Positions 21,154 through 35,539 of a DNA stretch of 41,484 bases are shown here, piece by piece. This DNA comes from a virus (Duplodnaviria; Caudoviricetes): the IMG/VR virus record IMGVR_UViG_3300026541_000016, positions 1 through 41,484 of that record; one strand, 5' to 3'. Position 1 is the first letter of the stretch. Every line of letters begins with the position of its first letter. The translations under genes were made by a program, and so were the position numbers. Below the pieces are notes generated by a model that had not been told where the DNA came from, did not search any database, and saw only the letters and a list, made by a program, of their open reading frames with translations.

Positions 21154-22011
21154 ATGGCAACAATAAGAACCGCGAAAGGCACGAATAGTTCTAAAGATAG
21201 TGGCTCTACTCTCACAGTTTCAGCAGTTAATGCCAAACGGGGATCGCTTTTATTCGTAGGCGTTGCCTATGAAACGTCTCAGGGGTTCCCTACGGCTAAG
21301 TGGGGGAATGGTGATCTTGTCAGATTGGATTTTCAACACAATGTCGGCGCTGCGGGTGTTGCCCTGTTCTCCCGTATAAGAGTTCGTAATCCTGTCGCAC
21401 GAGATGTCGTTGTTACATGGCCTGGAGCTATCCTAGCCAGGGCAATGTTTGTCACTATGATCGAAGGCGTCAACCTCAAGGAGCAGGTGAAAAACCGCGC
21501 ACAGGACGCTACCACCACACCGGATAGTGGATTAACAGGCACCCTGTCAACCACGGGGCAAACTAAATTAGCCGCTTTCTGTGCGGCCGGCCCAAGCAGT
21601 GATACCCAAGGAACACCGACAAGCCCGACACTTGCCGGGCAAAGAATTGGAACCACAGGGGCACCCCCCTCCAGTAACGTCACGATAGAGGAATATTTTG
21701 AACTCGATATCGCGACGACCGCAGCCGTCAAGGCACGCGTCACTGGTGCGGCGAGTAGAGATTGGGCGATCTCACTTACCACGATAGAAGAATGGGGAGA
21801 AATCAGCGTATTAAGTGATACGGGCGAAGTGCGGATCTTAACTGCCATGGAACTGGGCGCTATAGAAGACAGTGTCCTGACATGGGGCCAAACAGCAGCC
21901 AATCAAACAACCGTGAAAACATGGTTTCCCAGCACGAAACAAGACATAGACATTCAAGCAATGATAGACGTTGCCGGGTTGGCCTTTCGTCGTATCCGTA
22001 GAAATGTCTAG
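21154..22011 (+). CDS. Beta-rich putative virion protein, 285 aa
   Basis: T/A/G/V-rich; no signal peptide; first gene after tR'. Confidence 0.6.
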   Translation: MATIRTAKGTNSSKDSGSTLTVSAVNAKRGSLLFVGVAYETSQGFPTAKWGNGDLVRLDFQHNVGAAGVALFSRIRVRNPVARDVVVTWPGAILARAMFVTMIEGVNLKEQVKNRAQDATTTPDSGLTGTLSTTGQTKLAAFCAAGPSSDTQGTPTSPTLAGQRIGTTGAPPSSNVTIEEYFELDIATTAAVKARVTGAASRDWAISLTTIEEWGEISVLSDTGEVRILTAMELGAIEDSVLTWGQTAANQTTVKTWFPSTKQDIDIQAMIDVAGLAFRRIRRNV

Positions 22012-24506
22012 TGGGCACAGCCGCATTAACCACTGATTTAGTTTTACTTGCTAATCAAAACGCTGCCGGAGCCGTCCGTGAACAGAGTGCATCGAATCAG
22101 TCGGAAGGCACTTTATTTGTCTTTGGAACCGCGTCTAATGGGTTTAGTGATGACGGGGTGGGTCTTAATGGTGGGGTGAGTGCCGCTTTTACCGCGCAGA
22201 GCGTCGCTAGCACCATTATCTTTCAATGGATGATGAATCTTACTCCGCCGGATACCGTCTTAAATGGGGGGATGCGTATCCGTGTTGAACAAGCGGCGAA
22301 TTTTGGCGAATGGTTTGTTGCCGGGGATGCTGAGTATGACGGTGGATTTAAAATCTTCGCTGTTGATACTACCCGAACGTTAGACAGAACTAGTGCAACC
22401 TCTCCCACATTAACCGCAATTGATCGCTTAGGGTTTATTGTCGATCTCGTTGTATCAGGGATTGATGGCAGTTGTGCATTGGTTGATGTCTCCCGACGAG
22501 GCACAGGGATGACCGTCACTGGCGGAACGGTTGCCGATCCGATAACTCCCATAGACATTGAAGCGGCTGACAATACGACTTCTAGTCAATTAGGAATGTG
22601 GCGCAGGAACTCGTCTACCGGCTCATTTTCCATGGTGGGGAGAACGACCATTGGAAACACGGCCGGGACGCTTCTTACTGTCTTTCGGGCGACGAATGTT
22701 GTCACAACAATTTCTGACATGCCGGTAAAGGCCGAGCAGAATCAATTAACCATTGAAAGCAACGCAACAAACAAAACAGATTTCGTTATTGGGACTGAAA
22801 TTGGAACAGGCGTTGAATCAGTTGGCGTGGGTGGCGGAAGTTTTACCGGAACAAGTTCAGATCCTGCACGGACGTTAACGATCAATTCTATCGACGCTGA
22901 CACACTGAATTGTCATTTTTTTGGTGTCTCTTTGGTTATCGGTGCCAAGATTAATCTTACAGGCGCATTTAATAAATTTGTAAGTTGTCTGGTTTCAGCC
23001 TATGACTCTATTGTTTTAAGAACTAGCGCAACATTACGCGCTAGCACCATTACGGATAGTGTGGCGACGCCCTCAACTGCCACAAGCGCAGACGGTGGGG
23101 CTGTGGATCTTGGTGCATCAGATCCCGCAGTTGACATATTTAAAGACAACACTATTCAAAACAGTCCACGTGGGATCATGTTTAATCCCTCTGCGACAGG
23201 AAATTTGACGTTAGATAATATCACGTTCACAAATAATGCCGTTTGTGATGCGGCGATACAGTTTGATACCCCGTCGACTTTTTTAGACCAGACCGCCGAT
23301 GCCAATAGTGCGGCGATAAATGATGTTCAGTTTTTCCCCACAGTCTCTGTCACCAATGACGCATTTTTACTCGGACTCAAACAGCCCGGCCCAAGAGTCC
23401 GGATCACCGTCGGCACCATTGGTGTTGGAACCTATACGGTCACATGGCAGTACCGAAGTAGTCCATCGGTGTGGACGAATCTATCCGGCGTTACTGATGG
23501 CACAGGTGCTTTTAAGACGGTAGGTGAAAATGACGTTACTTTCACAGTCCCAACGAATTGGGTAGCGACGACCGAAGGGACTATCGGACCGTTTTTCTAC
23601 ATTCGTGCGCTACGCAACGCGGGCACGATGACCACCAATCCGTTGGGAGATTCTTGCTTGACGGGGTTCGATATACGATTGGTCTCGGGAACCGGAATTG
23701 CGACAACGATTAAAGTCCAAGGCGGGACAGCACCTATTGTAGAGCATGTTACGGCCGGGACGTTTACGGTTGAAAATAATGTCACAGTCATTGCCCAAGG
23801 GGTGACTGAAGGCACGCCGATTTCAATCCTCGCCGCTGAGACGGTGGGTTCTCGAACAATCGGCGATGTGTTACTTAACGCATTCGCAGACGACACAGGC
23901 AAAGTGACGTTAAGTTTGAATTATGAGGCGGCCTTTGATCCTTCAGGATTGGACGTTCGTGTTGTGGCGAGAAACCAAGGGGTGGCGATTGCTGCGATAG
24001 CAGATGACGGGGGAGTCTTTACCGACGAAACGTTAGAGGCGAGTAACAACGTCACGGCCGACATGACGTTACTGCCTGCCGTTCCGGCGGTGAACGATGC
24101 GTATCAGTTTGGTCATGATGAAGAATTTTCCAGATTAAAGTTAAACGTCACCACGGCATTAGTTGGCACTGGAAATACGATTGTCTGGGAGTATTGGAAC
24201 GGGTCCGCGTGGACGGCGTTAGCGAGTGTTGTCGACGGCACGAACGGACTCGAGACTTTAGGGGAAAACATTGTTAGTTGGACAGTGCCAGGAGATTGGG
24301 TCACTCGCACTGATAATGGACAAGGCCCATTCAAATATGTGCGTTTTAGACTTTCCGCCACGACAACGGTCACAACCGTGCCGGTGGGTGGACGCGTGAC
24401 GTTAGACACAACCCGATTTTTACCCTATGACGAAATTCGTACAGTCCTTACGACAGGGCTTACGGATAACGTCAACTGGGTATTTGATACGATTTCTAAA
24501 TTTTAG
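22011..24506 (+). CDS. Large putative virion protein with a beta-helix-like region and a duplicated domain, 831 aa
   Basis: NTIQN/NITFTNN-type repeats; two copies of NDA..G...W.Y....W..L..V.DGT......GEN.V..TVP..W...GPF.Y.R. Confidence 0.65.
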   Translation: MGTAALTTDLVLLANQNAAGAVREQSASNQSEGTLFVFGTASNGFSDDGVGLNGGVSAAFTAQSVASTIIFQWMMNLTPPDTVLNGGMRIRVEQAANFGEWFVAGDAEYDGGFKIFAVDTTRTLDRTSATSPTLTAIDRLGFIVDLVVSGIDGSCALVDVSRRGTGMTVTGGTVADPITPIDIEAADNTTSSQLGMWRRNSSTGSFSMVGRTTIGNTAGTLLTVFRATNVVTTISDMPVKAEQNQLTIESNATNKTDFVIGTEIGTGVESVGVGGGSFTGTSSDPARTLTINSIDADTLNCHFFGVSLVIGAKINLTGAFNKFVSCLVSAYDSIVLRTSATLRASTITDSVATPSTATSADGGAVDLGASDPAVDIFKDNTIQNSPRGIMFNPSATGNLTLDNITFTNNAVCDAAIQFDTPSTFLDQTADANSAAINDVQFFPTVSVTNDAFLLGLKQPGPRVRITVGTIGVGTYTVTWQYRSSPSVWTNLSGVTDGTGAFKTVGENDVTFTVPTNWVATTEGTIGPFFYIRALRNAGTMTTNPLGDSCLTGFDIRLVSGTGIATTIKVQGGTAPIVEHVTAGTFTVENNVTVIAQGVTEGTPISILAAETVGSRTIGDVLLNAFADDTGKVTLSLNYEAAFDPSGLDVRVVARNQGVAIAAIADDGGVFTDETLEASNNVTADMTLLPAVPAVNDAYQFGHDEEFSRLKLNVTTALVGTGNTIVWEYWNGSAWTALASVVDGTNGLETLGENIVSWTVPGDWVTRTDNGQGPFKYVRFRLSATTTVTTVPVGGRVTLDTTRFLPYDEIRTVLTTGLTDNVNWVFDTISKF

Positions 24507-24517
24507 AGGATAGGTAG

Positions 24518-27115
24518 ATGACAACGCTTTCTTTATTAGGCGGTGACTGGGAATACCAGTTTGAGGATCAAACCGTTGGATCAGGGATTACGGGGACTCG
24601 GATGCTTGTATACATTACAGGTGTCGTGCGTACCACCAATGAGGTTTATTCCGCCGTCGCTGCGGCTGCCGATGACTTTCAGGCGATGGGATTTAAAAAC
24701 CCAATGCTTCCGGTCACCCCGAACGAATACACATTAGAAAATCAAGCCTTTATCTCTCGGACCTCTGCTGAATTCCTCAAAGAAGGCACTATTACGGCGA
24801 ATTGGTCACTCGTTGGTGTTGCCGGGGACAATTCTGGACGAGGAGTCTTGAAAGTCGGATACACTGATTCTGTTGCTCTCGTCGCTGGGGATGTTGGAAG
24901 ACAAGTCTCCCAAGCCACCACGTTAGATACCGGAACGTTATTGGCATTTGATACCGAGCCTGATGGCTCGCTGATCATGTGGGTGCGGCCTGATGATTCG
25001 ACACCTTCTACGGGGGACATCTTTGACGGAACGGGAGTGATCACAGTCGTCGGAGGAACCGGAGTGACCGCAACCAGCATTGCGGGTATTTCAGGGCAGA
25101 CCGACCTGGTTGCATTTCAGGCCATTGGTAGTGTCCCTGTGGCGACAGAAGTCTATGCGGTCCAGAGTCGTATTAAGCTGTCTGATGCTGCAACCAATAC
25201 CTTTCAGTGGTGGGCGACTGACCCCGATGTGTCATTAGGCATCGTCTCGACCTTGGTCATGACTAGAAATAGCGGTGTGTTAATCTCTGCCGGTGATGTC
25301 GAGGTTTTTGCCCGAAAATACACATCACTTTATGATAATTTTAGGCTCAATATTGCAGCGGGCGGATTTTCTGCGTTACCGCTTGCCTCTGCTCCCGATA
25401 TTAATAATACAACTGGATATCGCAGAACCACGACAACTTCCTCTACAGGGACGTTTAACGTGGGCAATGCGATCTATGTCGGAGCGACTTTTGCCACCGC
25501 GACAAAGAAAGGCGTTATCACTGCCGTTACGGGATCGAACCCGACGGTTGCGATTCAGTATTATCTGATTGGAGATCTAACTGACTTCGCGGGATCGGAC
25601 GCGCTAAAAGAGTTTATCTTTTCCACTCAGGTAGACGGCGATGCGACCGCAACCGCAGGTGCTCCGGTGGCTAATTTGCTCGGTCCCACAGATACCGCTT
25701 CCGGTGAAGGTGGCACGGTCACAATTACCATTGGTCATCAGACAGTGGATCATGATAATACGGGCGTTGCTGAACCGTATTCAATCACAATTGATTCAAT
25801 ATCATTAGTTCCAATTGCGAAAGTGTATGAACGTATTAAATTTGTCCTTCGTCGTGGATCGGATAACACATTTTGGGACACCGTCGCATCCAGTGTACCC
25901 GGAGAACAATACCGTGGCGTTGAGGCGTTGTTTTACTATGCGCCGAATACTGGCACGATGGTGCAAGGGGAGGATATTGTTAATGAAACAAAAACCGGCC
26001 TGGCAGCAAGGCTGTTATCGGACAATACCGCAGCCGCAGGCGAAAGTGTTTCACAAGACTATATTACTGTCACAGATCTCCAGCCTTCAACGCTAAGTAC
26101 CGCAGACAATGACGTGTGGGCGGACAGTGGATCGGTCGATGACGTTACGGTCGATACAGCAGGCGCAGGCGGCGCTATTGTGGTTCATGCTGCGGTGAAA
26201 GCTTCACCGTTTGGTTCATTTACCGGGACACAAATCTTTGGTGCACCGGGTATTTCTTATATTAATCCGGCGGCGGGGGATGCACAGTCTTATATTCTGA
26301 CAGACGATCTCGGGACATTAAGGACGCCGCCGAATACTGTCACCTACAGCATTGCGAATACCCGAGCCGGGGATCGCGGTTATGTCGCACGCGACACCGG
26401 AACCTCAGGCGTTATCGATAAGGACCAGTTTGGAGGATCAGACGCCACATTAAACATCTTGAGTGGGCCAACATTTCAGGTCGCGGGAACGATTGATGCA
26501 GAAGTCCCAACTGCTGGAGTAATACGCGTCGTGGAGACAACGTTACAACAGGAGCACCGTTACGAATATGCGTCACGTACCACGGGGGCTGGTGGCATAT
26601 TTACTTTGTATATTCCGACCTCTGGTACAGGGACGATCACGACTGCAAGTACAACTCAGATTATTGATACGGGTCAGTTGTTTAGTACAGGTGCCAACCC
26701 TGTCAAAATTGGTCATTTGGTACGAAATCTGACAGGAGGGAAAGTAACACACGTCTGGGAGGTGTCCTCGATTGTCAGTGATACTGTGTTGGATGTGTTT
26801 GCTTTATATGGGCCACTCGATGCTACTCAGGACTGGGATGTCAGTGATACCTATGAGATTAATCAGTTAATACAAGCCTATGATGCGACTGATAATGTTT
26901 TTGATACTATTTTAGACCTACATGAGACTGTCGGAACAGACGGATCTCCTGGTACGATGTCTAATACATTTGTTAAAACACCAGCGGCGGACTTTGGAAC
27001 TGTTGCGCAGGTGAGGCAGGGGAAAATCATTCTTCCTTTTGAGCAAAACCAAACACAAGGCGACGGGAATACGACAGTGACAGCAGTCAGGACGCCGGAT
27101 ACCATTGCTGTATGA
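24518..27115 (+). CDS. Large beta-rich putative virion protein, 865 aa
   Basis: T/G/A/D-rich, AGGA SD, no signal peptide. Confidence 0.65.
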   Translation: MTTLSLLGGDWEYQFEDQTVGSGITGTRMLVYITGVVRTTNEVYSAVAAAADDFQAMGFKNPMLPVTPNEYTLENQAFISRTSAEFLKEGTITANWSLVGVAGDNSGRGVLKVGYTDSVALVAGDVGRQVSQATTLDTGTLLAFDTEPDGSLIMWVRPDDSTPSTGDIFDGTGVITVVGGTGVTATSIAGISGQTDLVAFQAIGSVPVATEVYAVQSRIKLSDAATNTFQWWATDPDVSLGIVSTLVMTRNSGVLISAGDVEVFARKYTSLYDNFRLNIAAGGFSALPLASAPDINNTTGYRRTTTTSSTGTFNVGNAIYVGATFATATKKGVITAVTGSNPTVAIQYYLIGDLTDFAGSDALKEFIFSTQVDGDATATAGAPVANLLGPTDTASGEGGTVTITIGHQTVDHDNTGVAEPYSITIDSISLVPIAKVYERIKFVLRRGSDNTFWDTVASSVPGEQYRGVEALFYYAPNTGTMVQGEDIVNETKTGLAARLLSDNTAAAGESVSQDYITVTDLQPSTLSTADNDVWADSGSVDDVTVDTAGAGGAIVVHAAVKASPFGSFTGTQIFGAPGISYINPAAGDAQSYILTDDLGTLRTPPNTVTYSIANTRAGDRGYVARDTGTSGVIDKDQFGGSDATLNILSGPTFQVAGTIDAEVPTAGVIRVVETTLQQEHRYEYASRTTGAGGIFTLYIPTSGTGTITTASTTQIIDTGQLFSTGANPVKIGHLVRNLTGGKVTHVWEVSSIVSDTVLDVFALYGPLDATQDWDVSDTYEINQLIQAYDATDNVFDTILDLHETVGTDGSPGTMSNTFVKTPAADFGTVAQVRQGKIILPFEQNQTQGDGNTTVTAVRTPDTIAV

Positions 27116-27627
27116 ATAATAAGTTTGGCATTGAGTCTATACGACTGGGTGGCATGACGTTAGACGAGCTTCCGATTGCTGAGGGGGCATTGACCAAACA
27201 ACAAATGCCGAGTGTGATAAATGCGTATAAAGATAATACCATTGTCAACATAAAAGCCAAATACCCAAAGCAAACAGTTGCTTGGATTGATGGTGCGATT
27301 CGTGAATGTGAAGATTCGATTAGAAACATCAGGAAATTAAAAGACGCACAGCATAAGATGATTGGTGAATATACCGGCTTTATAAGCTTGTGTAAGCACA
27401 GGGATAATGAAATTAAGAAGACTGATAGCGAAGAAAGGATCAAAGAGCTGAAGGTTCTGTTCCCGCCTTACAATGTTATGGCCATGAAGACCCAGATACA
27501 ATTATGTAACGAGGCGATCTATCGCTCGGACAATGTAATTGATAAGGAACATGAGTCGATTTCTGAACTTAGGGAACTTAGGGTTAAATGTGCCAAGCGT
27601 GACGAAGAGTTAAAGGCTCTAGGTTGA
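27112..27627 (+). CDS. Charged coiled-coil protein, possible assembly chaperone
   Basis: K/E-rich and helical, unlike its neighbours; ATGA coupling. Confidence 0.55.
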   Translation: MNNKFGIESIRLGGMTLDELPIAEGALTKQQMPSVINAYKDNTIVNIKAKYPKQTVAWIDGAIRECEDSIRNIRKLKDAQHKMIGEYTGFISLCKHRDNEIKKTDSEERIKELKVLFPPYNVMAMKTQIQLCNEAIYRSDNVIDKEHESISELRELRVKCAKRDEELKALG

Positions 27628-28440
27628 GTGACGACATTAAGTGGTTGGATTGTTGATTTAACGACTTCTCCGAGAACAATCACGATACCCGTTGGACAAG
27701 AGACTGTCACGGCGCAGGATCAAGTTGATACCGTTAGAAAATTAGAAGACACCTTTCAATCGATGGGGCATCCTCATTTTCTGGACGCTACCGGAAAAGA
27801 AGGCGGAGGGGTGACTGGGATTGTCGTCGTTTTGAAAGACTGTCAATACGCTTTTCAACCACGGCAGACAAGCCTGCAAACCGGAACGGTAACGACAGGG
27901 GACGTTCGTGGGCTTAAAGTCATCGATACGGCGGCATTGTTTTTGACCAATGGTGTGAATCGTGGTGATGTCATCGTGAATAGAAGTACAGCGGGGCACA
28001 GTACAGTGATTCACGTGGATAGCGAAATTGAATTAGAGACGCTTCCAATAGTTGGCGGGTCTCATAACCGATGGGATGTCTCAGACTCTTATGAGATCTT
28101 TGCGTATACCGATGCAAAAATCACATCAGGAGATTTATTTGCCGTAGACTCTGTAGGAGCGCCTATCAGTGCTATTCTCAATACTTTTGGTATTGGTTCA
28201 ACAGTGATTGAACAGTCTACATCGCCAGCCGCAGCGCCTATTCAACCGACAACGATTCTTGAAGGGACATTAACATGGGAAGTCGCTCTAAAGCGAATTT
28301 TAGCTTCTGTGACAAATAAACTTAGCGGGGCAGAAACAACCACGATGAGATTCCGTGATGTCGATGATACAAAAGATCGTATTGTCGCTACGGTTGATGC
28401 TAATGGAAATCGTACCGCTATTACCTATGACGATACCTAA
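27628..28440 (+). CDS. Putative virion connector protein, 270 aa
   Basis: Shares a WDVSD(S/T)YEI domain with the 865 aa protein; C-terminal KLSGA.TTT..FRD..DTKDRI.ATVD.NGNRT. Confidence 0.6.
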   Translation: MTTLSGWIVDLTTSPRTITIPVGQETVTAQDQVDTVRKLEDTFQSMGHPHFLDATGKEGGGVTGIVVVLKDCQYAFQPRQTSLQTGTVTTGDVRGLKVIDTAALFLTNGVNRGDVIVNRSTAGHSTVIHVDSEIELETLPIVGGSHNRWDVSDSYEIFAYTDAKITSGDLFAVDSVGAPISAILNTFGIGSTVIEQSTSPAAAPIQPTTILEGTLTWEVALKRILASVTNKLSGAETTTMRFRDVDDTKDRIVATVDANGNRTAITYDDT

Positions 28441-29909: not shown

Positions 29910-31323
29910 CTGGAAGCCCAGAGATTACCAACAGCCCGCTTGGGATTACCTAGAGAATGGCGGGAAACATGCCGAGTTAATATGGCATCGCAGAAGTGGT
30001 AAAGACGAGATAAGCCTTCATAGAACCTGTGTTGCCGCACATGAGCGTGTTGCAGGTTATTGGCACATGTTACCCATGGCCAACCAAGTTAAGAAGGCCA
30101 TTTGGGAAGCTATAAACCCTCATACTGGGATGCGACGGATTGATGAAGCCTTCCCATTAGAAGTCCGCGCTGCCACGCGTGAAAATGACATGTTCATCAA
30201 GTTTAAGAACGGGTCAACATGGCAAGCGTTAGGGTCTGATAACTACAAAGGCGCGATTGGAGCCCCCCCTGCTGGGATTGTTTATTCTGAGTGGTCACAA
30301 GCCAAACCTGATGCTAGAGCTTTCTTAAGGCCGATACTTGCTGAAAACAAGGGCTGGCAAATATTCATCACAACGCCACGCGGTAAGAATCACGCATATC
30401 GGACGTTTAGGGCAGCACAAAAGAACCCTAACGCATTTACCCAAACGTTACGCGCAGATCAGACCAGCGTATTCACAAAAGAACAGCTAGAAATTGAACG
30501 ACAGGCCTATATAGGAGACTTTGGGCCCAACATGGGCCAAGCCTTCTACGAGCAGGAATACATGGTCAGCTTTGATGCGGCTATTCTGGGTGCAATATGG
30601 GGGGCTGAACTCTCGGCGTTAGACAGGGAAGGACGCTTCACAGCGTTTGAGCACGTCTCGGGTTATCCCGTGTATGTTGCGATGGACATTGGCAGGACAG
30701 ATGCAACGTCACTTTGGTGGTATCAGGTTATCGGGAATGAGATACGTTTTATTGATAATCTGACCGACAACTTCAAAGACGTGGATTACTACGCGTCTCA
30801 GATGTTGGGCAAGCATGTCAAGATTGACATCATAGAGAATGAAATCGTCCTTAAATACCCCGGCGGTTGGCCGGATGAATGGTCAAGTGCTGAACATCGT
30901 AAAGACTTCAAGTATGAAACACTCTATCTCCCGCATGATGCTGCGGCTAAGACCTTAGCCACCAAGAAGTCCGTTGAAGAGCAATTCAGGGCAGTGTTTG
31001 GTTACGGCAATATTCGAGTGTTACCCCAATTATCAATGTCTGACGGTATTAAGTATGTCCGTCAGATGCTCAAAAAGGCATGGTTGAATACACGTTGTGA
31101 AGATGGTTTTGAGGCATTAAAAGCATATCAATATGAATGGGACGAAGACAAACAGAAGTTTAGAGATAATCCACTGCACAATTGGGCATCCGATCCCGCA
31201 GATGGGTTCCGCTATGCCGCAACCGCATGGCAAACGTTTGCCCCGCCAGCACCTGAGCCAGAACCCGAGCTAGACGAATGGGGACGCTACAAACGCACGA
31301 CAAACAGTTGGAAGACGGTCTAG
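29887..31323 (+). CDS. terL: Terminase large subunit
   Basis: PRDYQ, WHRRSGKD, VYSE, ITTPRGKNH, MDIG..D, LPHDA, H.WASD.AD.FRY. Confidence 0.95.
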   Translation: MRVQIPNNWKPRDYQQPAWDYLENGGKHAELIWHRRSGKDEISLHRTCVAAHERVAGYWHMLPMANQVKKAIWEAINPHTGMRRIDEAFPLEVRAATRENDMFIKFKNGSTWQALGSDNYKGAIGAPPAGIVYSEWSQAKPDARAFLRPILAENKGWQIFITTPRGKNHAYRTFRAAQKNPNAFTQTLRADQTSVFTKEQLEIERQAYIGDFGPNMGQAFYEQEYMVSFDAAILGAIWGAELSALDREGRFTAFEHVSGYPVYVAMDIGRTDATSLWWYQVIGNEIRFIDNLTDNFKDVDYYASQMLGKHVKIDIIENEIVLKYPGGWPDEWSSAEHRKDFKYETLYLPHDAAAKTLATKKSVEEQFRAVFGYGNIRVLPQLSMSDGIKYVRQMLKKAWLNTRCEDGFEALKAYQYEWDEDKQKFRDNPLHNWASDPADGFRYAATAWQTFAPPAPEPEPELDEWGRYKRTTNSWKTV

Positions 31324-33164
31324 AGCCCCCCACTGTTGATCGCTTCCGCAGACAGTTCGAGTCATTTGAGGACATTACCGAAGTTGCACGTATTGAGTCT
31401 GAAATAGACCGAGACTACAAAGACAATAAACAATGGACCCAAGAAGAGGTCGATAAGCTCAACGCCCGCAATCAAGCCGCAATTGTCGTTAATCGGGTCA
31501 AGCCCAAAGTTGAGGGCATGAAGGGACTGTTAATACAAAGACGGACAGATCCCAGAGCCTATCCAAGAACAGAGAAACATCAAAAGGCCGCTGAAGCGAT
31601 TACTGATGCTTTAAGGTTCGTGTCAGACAATACCGACATGGACGAATTAGAGCTTGATGTCGCGGATAATGTTTTTGTCGAGGGCTATGGGGCTGCTTTG
31701 ATTGATGTCAAGCGCAAAGAGGATGAATGGGAGATAGACCTCCAGCACATTCCTTGGGACCGTTATTATTATGATCCCCACTCACGACGTAAAGACTTCA
31801 AAGACAAACGATTTGACGGAATCGTAGTCTGGTTGGATCTTGACGTTGCGCTAGAACTCTACCCGGATGCCGATGTAGAAGCGTTAATGACCACGCAAGG
31901 GTCAACGACATTTGAAGACAAACCCTTATGGGTAGACTCACAACGTAAACGCGTCAAAGTTTGTCAGCACTTCTACCTTGAAAAAAGTGTCTGGATGATG
32001 TGCGTGTTTAGTACTGAGTTTTTAGTCGAGCCTCAAGAATCGCCGTATCTGGATGAAGAAGGCAAGCCGATGAATCCGATTGAGGCTGTGGGCTCTTATA
32101 TTGACCGAGACCTGGCACGCTTTGGAGAAGTGAGGTATTGGCGAGATCTACAAGACGAGATAAACCACAGACGATCTAAGTTCCTATTTCTTAATTCTGC
32201 CAGACAAACAATGGCCAGAAAAGGGGCGATAACAGATATCCCCGCATTCAAACGGGAAGCGGCAAAGGCGGATGGTCACTTGGAGTGGGTAGGGGAGAAG
32301 GGCGACTTTGAGATCGTTCCCACGAGTGACATGGCAAAAGCACAATTTGACTTGCTGCAACATTCAGAGGCCCAGCTTGATGCTATATCATTCAATGCCC
32401 AACTCTCAGGAGAGCGACAAGGGGATCTTTCAGGAAGGGCGGTTGACTTGCTACAACAAGCGGGATCGCTGGAATTGTCCCCGATTTATTCGGCGATATC
32501 TAACTGGAAGCTTCGTGTCTATCGACAAGTTTGGGCGAGGATTAAGCAGTTCTGGGACGCCGAGAAATGGATCAGAGTCACCGATGATCACCGTAACCTA
32601 AAATGGGTAGGGCTTAATCATCCTGTTACGCTGGGAGAAAAGTTACAAGAGACCATTCAAGATGAGAGCTTGGCGCCACAGGTCCGTCAACAAGCCGCAC
32701 AAGCTTTACAAATCATGGTGCAGGGGCAAGATCCCAGACTACAACAGGTCCAGGAGGTGCGCAATAAGGTCGCCGAGTTGGATGTAGACATCATCTTGGA
32801 ACAGTCACAAAACGTGATTAATATTCAACGTGAGCAGTTTGAGTTATTGGCCAACCTTGCAAGTAACCGTCCTGAGGTTCCCTTCAAAGCGTTATTACAG
32901 TTATCCGAACTCAGGGATAAGGATCAACTCATCGCCGATATCGAGAAGTCGGAACAAGCCGGAGGCCAACAACAACAGGAATTGTTGCAGTTACAAAAGG
33001 CGGGCCAGGTCGTGGAACTCCAGACCAAGACTCAAAAGGCGCAAGTCGATAATGAGAAGACTCAGGCCGAGACTGAGAAATTGAAATCACAAAAAGACCA
33101 AACGGACTTGGAGAACCTTATATTATTAGAAAGGCCGGATACAGAAACCCAGGTCATTATTTAG
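31278..33164 (+). CDS. Portal protein (P22-like)
   Basis: QW......L..R.Q....VN...P, YDP.SR..D..D, D.QDEIN.RRSK, SG.A; Q-rich C-terminal coil; true start may be TTG 31308. Confidence 0.9.
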   Translation: MGTLQTHDKQLEDGLEPPTVDRFRRQFESFEDITEVARIESEIDRDYKDNKQWTQEEVDKLNARNQAAIVVNRVKPKVEGMKGLLIQRRTDPRAYPRTEKHQKAAEAITDALRFVSDNTDMDELELDVADNVFVEGYGAALIDVKRKEDEWEIDLQHIPWDRYYYDPHSRRKDFKDKRFDGIVVWLDLDVALELYPDADVEALMTTQGSTTFEDKPLWVDSQRKRVKVCQHFYLEKSVWMMCVFSTEFLVEPQESPYLDEEGKPMNPIEAVGSYIDRDLARFGEVRYWRDLQDEINHRRSKFLFLNSARQTMARKGAITDIPAFKREAAKADGHLEWVGEKGDFEIVPTSDMAKAQFDLLQHSEAQLDAISFNAQLSGERQGDLSGRAVDLLQQAGSLELSPIYSAISNWKLRVYRQVWARIKQFWDAEKWIRVTDDHRNLKWVGLNHPVTLGEKLQETIQDESLAPQVRQQAAQALQIMVQGQDPRLQQVQEVRNKVAELDVDIILEQSQNVINIQREQFELLANLASNRPEVPFKALLQLSELRDKDQLIADIEKSEQAGGQQQQELLQLQKAGQVVELQTKTQKAQVDNEKTQAETEKLKSQKDQTDLENLILLERPDTETQVII

Positions 33165-33355
33165 GAGCGACTTGTTTGATTTTCGATCCACTCTGAAAAT
33201 GCGAGTTCATCAAGCAACACTCGTCCACCCACGCGTCGAATAACCTTGCTAAATCCATTCGTGTCAGCGTTGAATATGAGCCACCTAAGTGAGCCCTGTG
33301 AAAAAGTGGGGTGGGCGTTCGCAAACTCTGCGACGGTTTTTAAATCATCGATCAT
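33161..33355 (-). CDS. Excisionase-like DNA-binding protein inserted antisense in the head operon
   Basis: TV.EF....P.F....LRWLIF....NG......RVG.RVL.D...F..W; SD AGGAG. Confidence 0.7.
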   Translation of the reverse strand: MIDDLKTVAEFANAHPTFSQGSLRWLIFNADTNGFSKVIRRVGGRVLLDELAFSEWIENQTSRS

Positions 33356-33466
33356 GTCTATCTCCTAACAAAATGTGCATAAAACTACGATATTGAAAGC
33401 TTAGGGGGTTGATTAGAGAATTTCAACGACAATAAGTCCCGACTTCCTGTCGGAAATGTTATTTAA

Positions 33467-33634
33467 CGCCGTCGCCGGGCGCTGATAGGGGTTATTCCTC
33501 TATCAGAAACGGGCGTACAGAATTTACCTGCCGCCGAGGTTACGGGCGTTCATCCATCCGCTTTCTGCGGATTTTTTCATTGTGAAACAGCTGCCGCCGA
33601 GCCACGGGCGAATATGGCCGCCGCATTGCGGGCG
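33467..33634 (+). ncRNA. Four tandem pseudoknot-like units in the scaffold leader
   Basis: Variable stem-GYCGCCG-complementary stem-linker-CGGGCG, four times. Confidence 0.75.
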
Positions 33635-33644
33635 AGGAGATTAT

Positions 33645-34412
33645 ATGTCTGATGAACTGAAAGCACTAATCGAGGAAGACTCTGAAACGACTGAGGTAAC
33701 TACCGAGGAAGTCACAGAGGATTTAAAGGTCGATGAGGCCAAGCCCGTTATTGAAAAGGCGGGTGAAGATGCAAAAGTAGATCAAACATCTACTGATGAT
33801 AAGCCTCCCGTTGAGACGACATCAACAGACAGTGACGACATTTCATGGACTAAGACGATGGCGTTGGACGAGCGATCAAAGCGCCAGGTCTTGGAAACCA
33901 AGACTCAATCATTAGAAGCCGAACTTAGCAAATTTAAGAAAAAGTTGCGCCCGGATGCGCTAGAGGAACCGGAAGCCGCATTAAATCATGTGGAGCAAGC
34001 CTTCCAGTCCCAGATCTTGACTGCAATGACCAATCTATCACGAGAGGTCATGAAGATGCATAAGGACGATTACGACGCAATGGAAGTTAAGTTTGTTGAA
34101 ATGGCGACTAGTGATCCTTCACTTGTTAACGAAATGGCAGCAAGTCCTAATCCTGCCAAGTTTGCCTATGAAACGGCAAAGAAAAAGCTCGAACGGGAGG
34201 AGTTTTTAAATATGGATACTGCCACTGAAAAAGCCAAACTCGAAGCACAATGGAAAGCTGAATTTGAAGCTAAACAAAATGCGGGGAGTGAGGAAAAACA
34301 AGAGAAGGATGCGCTTAACTCGAAAGCCGACTTGCCATCATTGGCAACTGTTGGTGCTCCAGGAAACCAAGTCGTAACGGACAAATCCCTGGAGGACCTA
34401 TTTCCGAGGTAA
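33645..34412 (+). CDS. Scaffolding protein
   Basis: Acidic N-terminus, coiled coil, SPNPA.FAY; between portal and capsid; SD AGGAG at 33635. Confidence 0.85.
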   Translation: MSDELKALIEEDSETTEVTTEEVTEDLKVDEAKPVIEKAGEDAKVDQTSTDDKPPVETTSTDSDDISWTKTMALDERSKRQVLETKTQSLEAELSKFKKKLRPDALEEPEAALNHVEQAFQSQILTAMTNLSREVMKMHKDDYDAMEVKFVEMATSDPSLVNEMAASPNPAKFAYETAKKKLEREEFLNMDTATEKAKLEAQWKAEFEAKQNAGSEEKQEKDALNSKADLPSLATVGAPGNQVVTDKSLEDLFPR

Positions 34413-34417
34413 GTTAA

Positions 34418-35539
34418 ATGGCTACTACTACAACAAGTGCAGACCTTGTTGTTAAGAAATTCCTGGCCGACTTTTGGGAAGAATATATCCGCAAAGCGCG
34501 GTTTTCCCGGTATACAGGAACGACTAACAATAATGTCATCACTATCAAAGAGGGCCTCCAACAAATCAGTATTCCATTAGTTACTCGCCTAAAAGGTGAC
34601 GGTGTTACCGGCAATGCCACACTCCGTGGCAATGGTGAGGCTATTGGTAACTTCGGTTTGACACTAACTCCAACGTATTTTCGTCACGCAGTCGAACATA
34701 CCAAAGAGGAATTGGAAAAACCGGCCATTGATTTAATGCGGGCCTCGCGCTCACTCTTAATGGAGTGGGCCAAAGAACTGCAGCGGGACGATATCATAGA
34801 GGCATTGGGCGCCGTTTTTGACGGCACGACCTATGCAAACTATGGTGATACCACTGCCGCAGCGTTTGACACATGGTTAACCAATAACAATGATCGCATA
34901 TTGTATGGTGAAGCCAAGGGCAATACGGTGGCAGGAAACCACACTAGCTCACTGGCAGCGGTAACAGTCGCAACCGGCAAGTTAGATACGGATATTGTGT
35001 CTTTAGCCAAACGTATATCACAGCAAGCAGATGCACATATTCGTCCATTAGTTGAGGAGGAAGATGACGAAAAGCACGTAATGTTTGTTGATACCTTTGC
35101 GATGCGTGATCTGCGTGCGGACACCGCAATTCAGCAAGCACAACGCGAAGGACTCATGCGAGGCAAGGAAAGTCAGCCGCTATTTACAGGCGGTGATTTG
35201 CTGTGGGATAACGTCATTATTCGAGAAATCCCAGAGATTGCGACCTTTATCGATGGTGACTCAGGGACGAATGGCCTATGGGGTGGTCTTGCGACTGCTG
35301 ATGGGCTGAATACTGCCGGTGATACAAGCTCGCGTATTGGAGCGTGTTTCCTATGTGGTCAACAAGCCGTGTCCTATGGCTTAGGCCGGCGGCCTAATTT
35401 GGTCGTGGATATGGACTTTGACTTTGAATTCCAACCCGGGGTCGCAGTCGAGCTTAAGCACGACATCGATAAGTCTTTTTTCAACAACAAGCAGCATGGC
35501 GTGGTGACAGTTTTTGTCTCAGCAGCTGGTGACGCTTAA
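34418..35539 (+). CDS. Major capsid protein (DUF4043-like)
   Basis: I.IPLV..L.G.GVTG...L.GN.E, RHAV, L.CGQQA, K..FN.KQHGV. Confidence 0.9.
   Translation: MATTTTSADLVVKKFLADFWEEYIRKARFSRYTGTTNNNVITIKEGLQQISIPLVTRLKGDGVTGNATLRGNGEAIGNFGLTLTPTYFRHAVEHTKEELEKPAIDLMRASRSLLMEWAKELQRDDIIEALGAVFDGTTYANYGDTTAAAFDTWLTNNNDRILYGEAKGNTVAGNHTSSLAAVTVATGKLDTDIVSLAKRISQQADAHIRPLVEEEDDEKHVMFVDTFAMRDLRADTAIQQAQREGLMRGKESQPLFTGGDLLWDNVIIREIPEIATFIDGDSGTNGLWGGLATADGLNTAGDTSSRIGACFLCGQQAVSYGLGRRPNLVVDMDFDFEFQPGVAVELKHDIDKSFFNNKQHGVVTVFVSAAGDA

Follow-up and report, generated by a model that had tools for sequence, protein, structure and literature searches.

Why does the leader of a putative phage scaffold gene carry four copies of what appears to be one small RNA fold, the last of which ends directly at the Shine-Dalgarno sequence? 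The DNA in question, here called the window, is the whole 41,484-nt virus record IMGVR_UViG_3300026541_000016 (positions 1 to 41,484). It carries integrase, repressor-like, Erf and replication genes as well as a head module composed of terminase, portal, a 255-aa gene and a PF13252 capsid gene. The array is preceded by the gene for a P22-like portal protein (31278..33164, + strand; PF16510, E 4.9e-89) and followed by the 255-aa gene (33645..34412, + strand), which encodes a putative scaffolding protein, and the major capsid protein gene (34418..35539, + strand; PF13252, E 7e-39; phrog_334). The 255-aa gene owes its name to its position between portal and capsid and to its alignment with the annotated scaffolding protein genes of the Pseudanabaena phages Pam1 and Pam5, which occupy the same position. 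The scaffold label is one that we infer, because searches of the 255-aa protein against Pfam, PHROG and PDB gave no match, and there is no solved structure for the scaffold; an Atlas lead points to a cluster in which PF09306, the family of P22 gp8, makes up 13%. The packaging genes are immediately preceded by five successive + strand frames (285, 831, 865, 171 and 270 aa; 21154-28440), none of which matched Pfam or PHROG.

An earlier note on this DNA had described four tandem units, a U-tailed hairpin, an AGGAG and the start ATG at 33645, and all of these were confirmed at the positions given there, on the + strand. Unit 1 (33467..33515) has the P1 stem CGCC/GGCG, the loop GUCGCCG and the tail CGGGCG (33510-33515), and its loop 3 contains an inserted 10-bp hairpin with one G-U pair (33482-33506). 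The helix register of this unit is ambiguous, because the two stem strands are identical to the sequences that pair between loop and tail. The three other units share the loop GCCGCCG and the tail CGGGCG on different P1 stems: ACCU/AGGU in unit 2 (33526..33548), GCU/AGC in unit 3 (33590..33610) and AUG/CAU in unit 4 (33614..33634), the latter two being of the minimal 21-nt form. Unit 4 adjoins the Shine-Dalgarno-like AGGAG, recognized by its sequence (33635..33639), with a gap of 0 nt, which places the Shine-Dalgarno beside the knot and outside it. A consensus scan detected a terminator-like hairpin in the interval between units 2 and 3 (33556-33572, U5 tail 33573-33577). The window contains G[CT]CGCCG 20 times, counting both strands. 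A CGGGCG tail and three or more stem pairs accompany it at 4 of these sites, the four units themselves, and the pattern of stem and tail did not appear in any of 200 dinucleotide shuffles of the window. A further hairpin (33437-33455) lies immediately 5' of unit 1.

A relative about 91% identical to the window was compared through its listed differences, 8 substitutions and 3 insertions, which leave the stems, loops and tails of all four units untouched. Pairing is kept in the hairpin inserted into unit 1 (G-C to G-U), and the terminator-like stem is retained and longer by one pair. Upstream of the array, window positions 33146-33417 are swapped for other sequence in the relative. This 270-nt stretch has no long frame, contains most of a weak sigma-70-like site (33393-33421) and gave no match in a phage collection. 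The relative's contig matches window positions 33427-33456 twice.

Is the repeat a peculiarity of one phage or a feature of a family? Loci were gathered by capsid homology with the motif ignored (150 including the window), and 122 of them, with a scaffold-like frame beside the capsid gene and 260 nt upstream, provided 114 distinct leaders. These were searched with the descriptor P1 (3 or more pairs) - G N a1..a5 - P1' - linker - a5' G a4'..a1'. In its strict form it found 183 units on the sense strand, compared to 0.5 in shuffles. The enrichment before scaffold genes that the earlier note had proposed to look for in this way is evident, with units in 97 of the 114 capsid-selected leaders and one unit on the reverse strand. 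Two units are typical; a single strict unit occurs in 22 of the 97 leaders, and four occur only in the window among the tree labels. Pam1, Pam5 and Pan3, which are cultured phages, and CBW1004C-Prop1 have two units each. Of the leaders taken from bacterial genomes with a recorded phylum, 36 of 45 contain units, and the host records of unit-bearing leaders comprise Alpha-, Beta- and Gammaproteobacteria, Nitrospirota and one Saccharimonadota bin. In P22 the descriptor matched a single stray site away from gene 8 and nothing at that gene, and six phage records whose capsids are distant (about 25% identity) yielded no unit on the sense strand. Judging by these sequences, the motif is widespread within one podophage head family.

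The repeats are predicted to be a conserved family of H-type pseudoknots of about 21 nt. Pairing between loop and tail, as the earlier note had proposed, is supported, with the difference that the second helix (P2) consists of five pairs around a bulged G rather than of four pairs; the additional pair joins loop G7 to tail C1. Nor are loop and tail nearly invariant once the whole family is considered, where invariance is confined to the first G of the loop, the bulged G and one C-G pair. To guard against circularity, the features of the descriptor were freed one at a time. When the three outer P2 pairs were left unconstrained, 161 of 172 candidates were fully paired versus 1 of 19 in antisense. 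Freeing loop position 7 and tail position 1 (190 candidates) returned G-C in 163, A-U in 15, U-A in 4, C-G and G-U in 1 each and non-pairs in 6. With P1 freed (n=201), standard or G-U pairs were found at pairs 1-3 in 185, 183 and 184 candidates, at pair 4 in 110 and at pair 5 in 71, and over pairs 1-3 G-U outnumbered A-C by 33 to 10, as expected for sense RNA. When loop G1, the bulged G or the adjacent C-G pair was freed, only 3, 1 and 0 extra matches were gained, which is chance level, and these three features therefore form the invariant core.

Covariation was also followed in a fixed-spacing alignment in which units 3 and 4 of the window are rows. Over 84 of 95 rows, seven of the eight pairs vary on both sides (157 cells; 0 of 500 shuffles); the 98.8% pairing of this alignment is inflated by selection, because 11 weakly paired rows, with only 5 of 7 pairs, had been left out. 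Compensatory change on both sides is seen at each of three P1 pairs. In P2 both partners vary at four of the five pairs, and they do so repeatedly on the capsid tree (FastTree), where five compensatory variants of this helix require a minimum of 11, 5, 4, 8 and 4 changes. Nested folding yields one helix at a time, and P1 and P2 are predicted to form simultaneously. A DNA operator or cruciform is ruled out by the restriction to one strand, the free variation of the stems and the preference for G-U over A-C.

To which neighbour does the array belong? In 64 of the 97 unit-bearing leaders, 6-19 nt separate the end of the last tail from the assigned start codon; in the other 33 the distance exceeds 20 nt, start codons having been assigned by script and some of them wrongly. 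A Shine-Dalgarno-like word begins -4 to +7 nt from the last tail end in 60 of 65 cases, and neighbouring units are spaced 23-29 nt apart in 60 of 89. The units keep no fixed distance to the preceding stop codon, the values ranging between -78 and +302 nt (about 300 nt in the window), and it is therefore to the start codon that the element is tied. The same scatter rules out a stop-codon readthrough or frameshift signal.

A search with the motif only returned at least 364 viral loci, two of which are the same contig, with 54 tandem clusters among the matches listed. Within these 54, 41 precede a scaffold-profile match, 6 a capsid match and 7 neither. Three of the last group have a short gene between them and the scaffold, one is truncated, two are apparently due to chance and one lies between a weak scaffold match and an unknown 304-aa gene. 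The 119 metagenome loci contained 12 tandem clusters, 7 before a scaffold and 5 not assigned to scaffold or capsid. Convincing units on the reverse strand of L605 (290-375) and L066 (1670-1800) are followed by genes that match neither the scaffold nor the capsid profiles used and possibly belong to other capsid families. Searching a collection for single units gave mostly chance matches in coding frames; the 120 loci included just 2 tandem clusters in front of scaffolds. In two overlapping samples of proteobacterial genomes, the tandem pattern was found in 0 of 401 and 1 of 401, and the one match has no P1.

Two variant arrangements occur within the family. In ten loci (L187, L189, L190, L192, L212, L033, L041, L050, L060 and L263) the array precedes the capsid gene, and in one clade such arrays lie between the scaffold stop and the capsid start, 42-88 nt from the latter. 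Capsid-side arrays are located at L187:949-1090, L189:3851-3992, L192:2666-2809, L212:3856-3992, L033:3608-3700 and L263:3825-4001. A second array, in front of a short gene that precedes the scaffold, occurs in L033 and L060, and in L263 the scaffold gene lies upstream of portal. The other variant is a sister knot with a fixed CGU/ACG stem that takes the place of the start-proximal unit, mostly in one capsid clade. It lies no more than 60 nt upstream of the scaffold start in L135, L175, L182, L196, L197, L217, L238, L254 and L257, and also occurs in L133, L193, L237, L242 and L261. Its loop appears to pair with the Shine-Dalgarno itself in 9 of 114 leaders, a count with weak controls: the loose sister-knot descriptor is noisy (33 of 114 leaders versus 11 antisense), and the strict one matches 17 of 114, compared with 2 upstream and with 10 in antisense, a control that the self-complementary stem confounds.

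The conserved RNA core accompanies a divergent protein. Scaffolds of the family are 17-35% identical to that of the window while the core stays fixed, and the capsid family is better conserved than the scaffold family. A PF06810 match was seen in 1 of 11 family scaffolds, below the cut-off (E 0.0044). P22 gp8 (L273:3893-4804) aligns with the window scaffold at hhalign E 0.057 and with a profile score of -2.3 bits, which is below the best shuffles; the ERKRQ, PD and DY motifs of gp8 and of the scaffold family align in the same order, with a score that is not significant. As a possible reader of the RNA, the basic ERxKR motif was rejected. Units are present in the leaders of 80 of 90 scaffolds with the motif and of 18 of 24 without it (Fisher p 0.10), so that the two do not co-vary, and independent pairs were uninformative.

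What, then, might the array do? We consider it somewhat better than even (a probability of about 0.55) that it is a translational operator to which unassembled scaffold binds, blocking the ribosome-binding site of its own gene. The close spacing of the units to the start codon agrees with translational control, and scaffold is the ligand that we infer. In such a mechanism the 21-nt knot would fold in cells and present the invariant bases (loop G1, bulged G and C-G pair) as a binding surface for free scaffold, a scaffold oligomer would read copies about 26 nt apart, and scaffold bound beside the Shine-Dalgarno would exclude the 30S subunit. Capsid protein would then draw scaffold into procapsids and lift the block on the 30S subunit. 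This reading is favoured because of the coupling to the start codon, the restriction to one head module, the tandem copies and the small invariant surface, because the sister knots seem to pair with the Shine-Dalgarno, and because there are precedents in P22 scaffold autoregulation and in the leader pseudoknots of T4 gp32 and S15.

Autoregulation of the P22 scaffold was reportedly described in papers of 1985. It is restated in PMC5529062, and bioRxiv 2022.12.13.520362 implicates the N-terminus of the protein. P22 resembles the window in its order of terminase, P22-like portal, scaffold and coat genes and in the same regulatory need; it differs in a portal-scaffold gap of 13 nt. That this gap holds no unit, and that the two scaffolds are not significantly similar, count against the operator reading, as do the failure of the ERxKR motif to track the RNA and the fixity of the RNA core across diverging scaffolds. 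The Shine-Dalgarno of the window lies outside the knot and one third of last units (33 of 97) are more than 20 nt from the start, which also speaks against it, and the capsid-side arrays of one clade are not simply explained by scaffold self-repression.

The main rival is an element that acts without a ligand. Compact tandem knots could hinder RNase E scanning or help ribosome loading, with scaffold and capsid exceeding portal. The array sits at the step from portal to scaffold and capsid and may precede capsid instead, the few invariant bases could be just a tertiary core, the hosts span several phyla, and coaxial base pairing is described to shield downstream sites from RNase E in a graded manner (PMC9943677). 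A generic element need not, however, be held 6-19 nt from a start codon or be nearly confined to one head-gene module, with no true tandem units in the sampled host genomes, and the sister knots appear to bury the Shine-Dalgarno. We regard this explanation as unlikely, though a serious contender.

Next comes the possibility that the operator is read by capsid protein or by a scaffold-capsid complex, or that binding activates capsid translation. It would accommodate the ten loci with an array before the capsid gene, the better conservation of the capsid family and the lack of units in the six records with distant capsids. Most arrays adjoin the start of scaffold and not of capsid, however, and the precedent reported for P22 is self-repression by scaffold (PMC5529062), which makes a capsid ligand distinctly unlikely in our view.

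Could the array serve assembly itself? Quite improbable, to our mind, is a double role in which the 21-nt knot is a scaffold-binding module and the array both meters synthesis and tethers scaffold on the portal-scaffold-capsid message, seeding procapsid assembly. Still less probable is a pure platform, an array that tethers scaffold on this mRNA and helps to nucleate a portal-containing procapsid. A multivalent array between the portal and scaffold genes would suit it, and a portal/mRNA interaction is suggested for P22 in PMC5529062, which itself notes little experimental evidence for that interaction; against it, the spacing follows the start codon and not the portal stop, and the leaders with one strict unit only offer no such multivalency.

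Tandem aptamers for a small molecule, or a site for a host factor, are very improbable. The compact knot with its invariant unpaired guanines and the wide host range would be compatible with them, but there is no metabolic gene context and there are no true units in the host genome samples. Riboswitch pseudoknots in Rfam include preQ1 and guanidine-III, and no Rfam riboswitch pseudoknot matched at gathering score or among the 9 matches at E up to 10.

Transcription attenuation, which the earlier note had allowed as an alternative to translational control, is the least probable of all: units 1 and 2 would control the U-tailed hairpin (33556-33577), or be released as a short decoy RNA, and the hairpin between the units, kept in the close relative, and the weak sigma-70-like site would agree with this, but of the 16 terminator-like hairpins in 99 unit-bearing leaders 15 lie upstream of all units and only that of the window lies between units, a position peculiar to the window phage and its close relative. 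This hairpin is moreover present in 8 of 8 lowest-energy nested folds of 33526-33585, the sole possible pairing between tail and hairpin is broken by an insertion in the relative, and the relative lacks the -35 region of the window's sigma-70-like site.

How does the array compare to known systems? The Rfam scan proposed in the earlier note gave only weak matches, none at gathering score, in the window and 16 related loci. The closest functional parallel is the operator of gene 32 in T4, T2 and RB69, likewise an H-type pseudoknot in a phage mRNA leader, for which autogenous repression is described as it is proposed here (PMC3014915, PMC535899). In these sources it is a single knot, the ribosome-binding site lies downstream of it in an unstructured A+U-rich tract, and the product is an SSB, whereas the scaffold leaders have 1-4 smaller bulged-G knots abutting the Shine-Dalgarno, no A+U tract and a putative scaffold gene. 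The array would work like the gene 32 operator, yet falls outside the gene 32 type. T4 gp32 and S15 are both presented in PMC3014915 as cases of leader pseudoknots acting as autogenous operators. E. coli rpsO (S15) shares a pseudoknot operator at the translation start that is bound by the gene product (PMC3985624); its knot is single and larger, and the Rfam S15 model scores 11.3 bits, with a cut-off of 39.5. GP20-a (RF02991), GP20-b (RF03003) and six further candidates upstream of GP20 genes (PMC10690425) are likewise putative cis-regulatory RNAs that immediately precede a gene for phage head assembly. GP20 is a different protein family; RF02991 and RF03003 were unmatched in the window and 16 related loci, and RF03003 exceeded the cut-off in 0 of 5 records.

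The motif strings are absent from the readable tables of PMC10690425, one of which lists a candidate, DNAVirus_5306, before three Phage-scaffold genes. The motif may sit unannotated in a bulk catalogue, because the 8,495 alignments of that study and the supplement of PMC5737381 lie outside the comparison. In the literature covered, which leaves aside these two sources, no description of the motif was found. Nor was a paper found that defines an RNA target for any scaffold, a statement that extends neither to subscription papers nor to several supplements.

The motif itself is real and structurally well supported by the sequence comparison, and its function as an operator is a candidate one. 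The knot is unusually small, has a conserved bulge and offers a handy marker for a scaffold family missed by Pfam and PHROGs. It provides a precise candidate RNA target of 21 nt, with a mutable core of three features, in the cultured phages Pam1, Pam5 and Pan3, and because the candidate is present in cultured phages, the way in which head proteins are held in balance can be put directly to the test. If the array should indeed both meter scaffold synthesis and tether the product, head assembly in dsDNA phages would begin on an RNA template.
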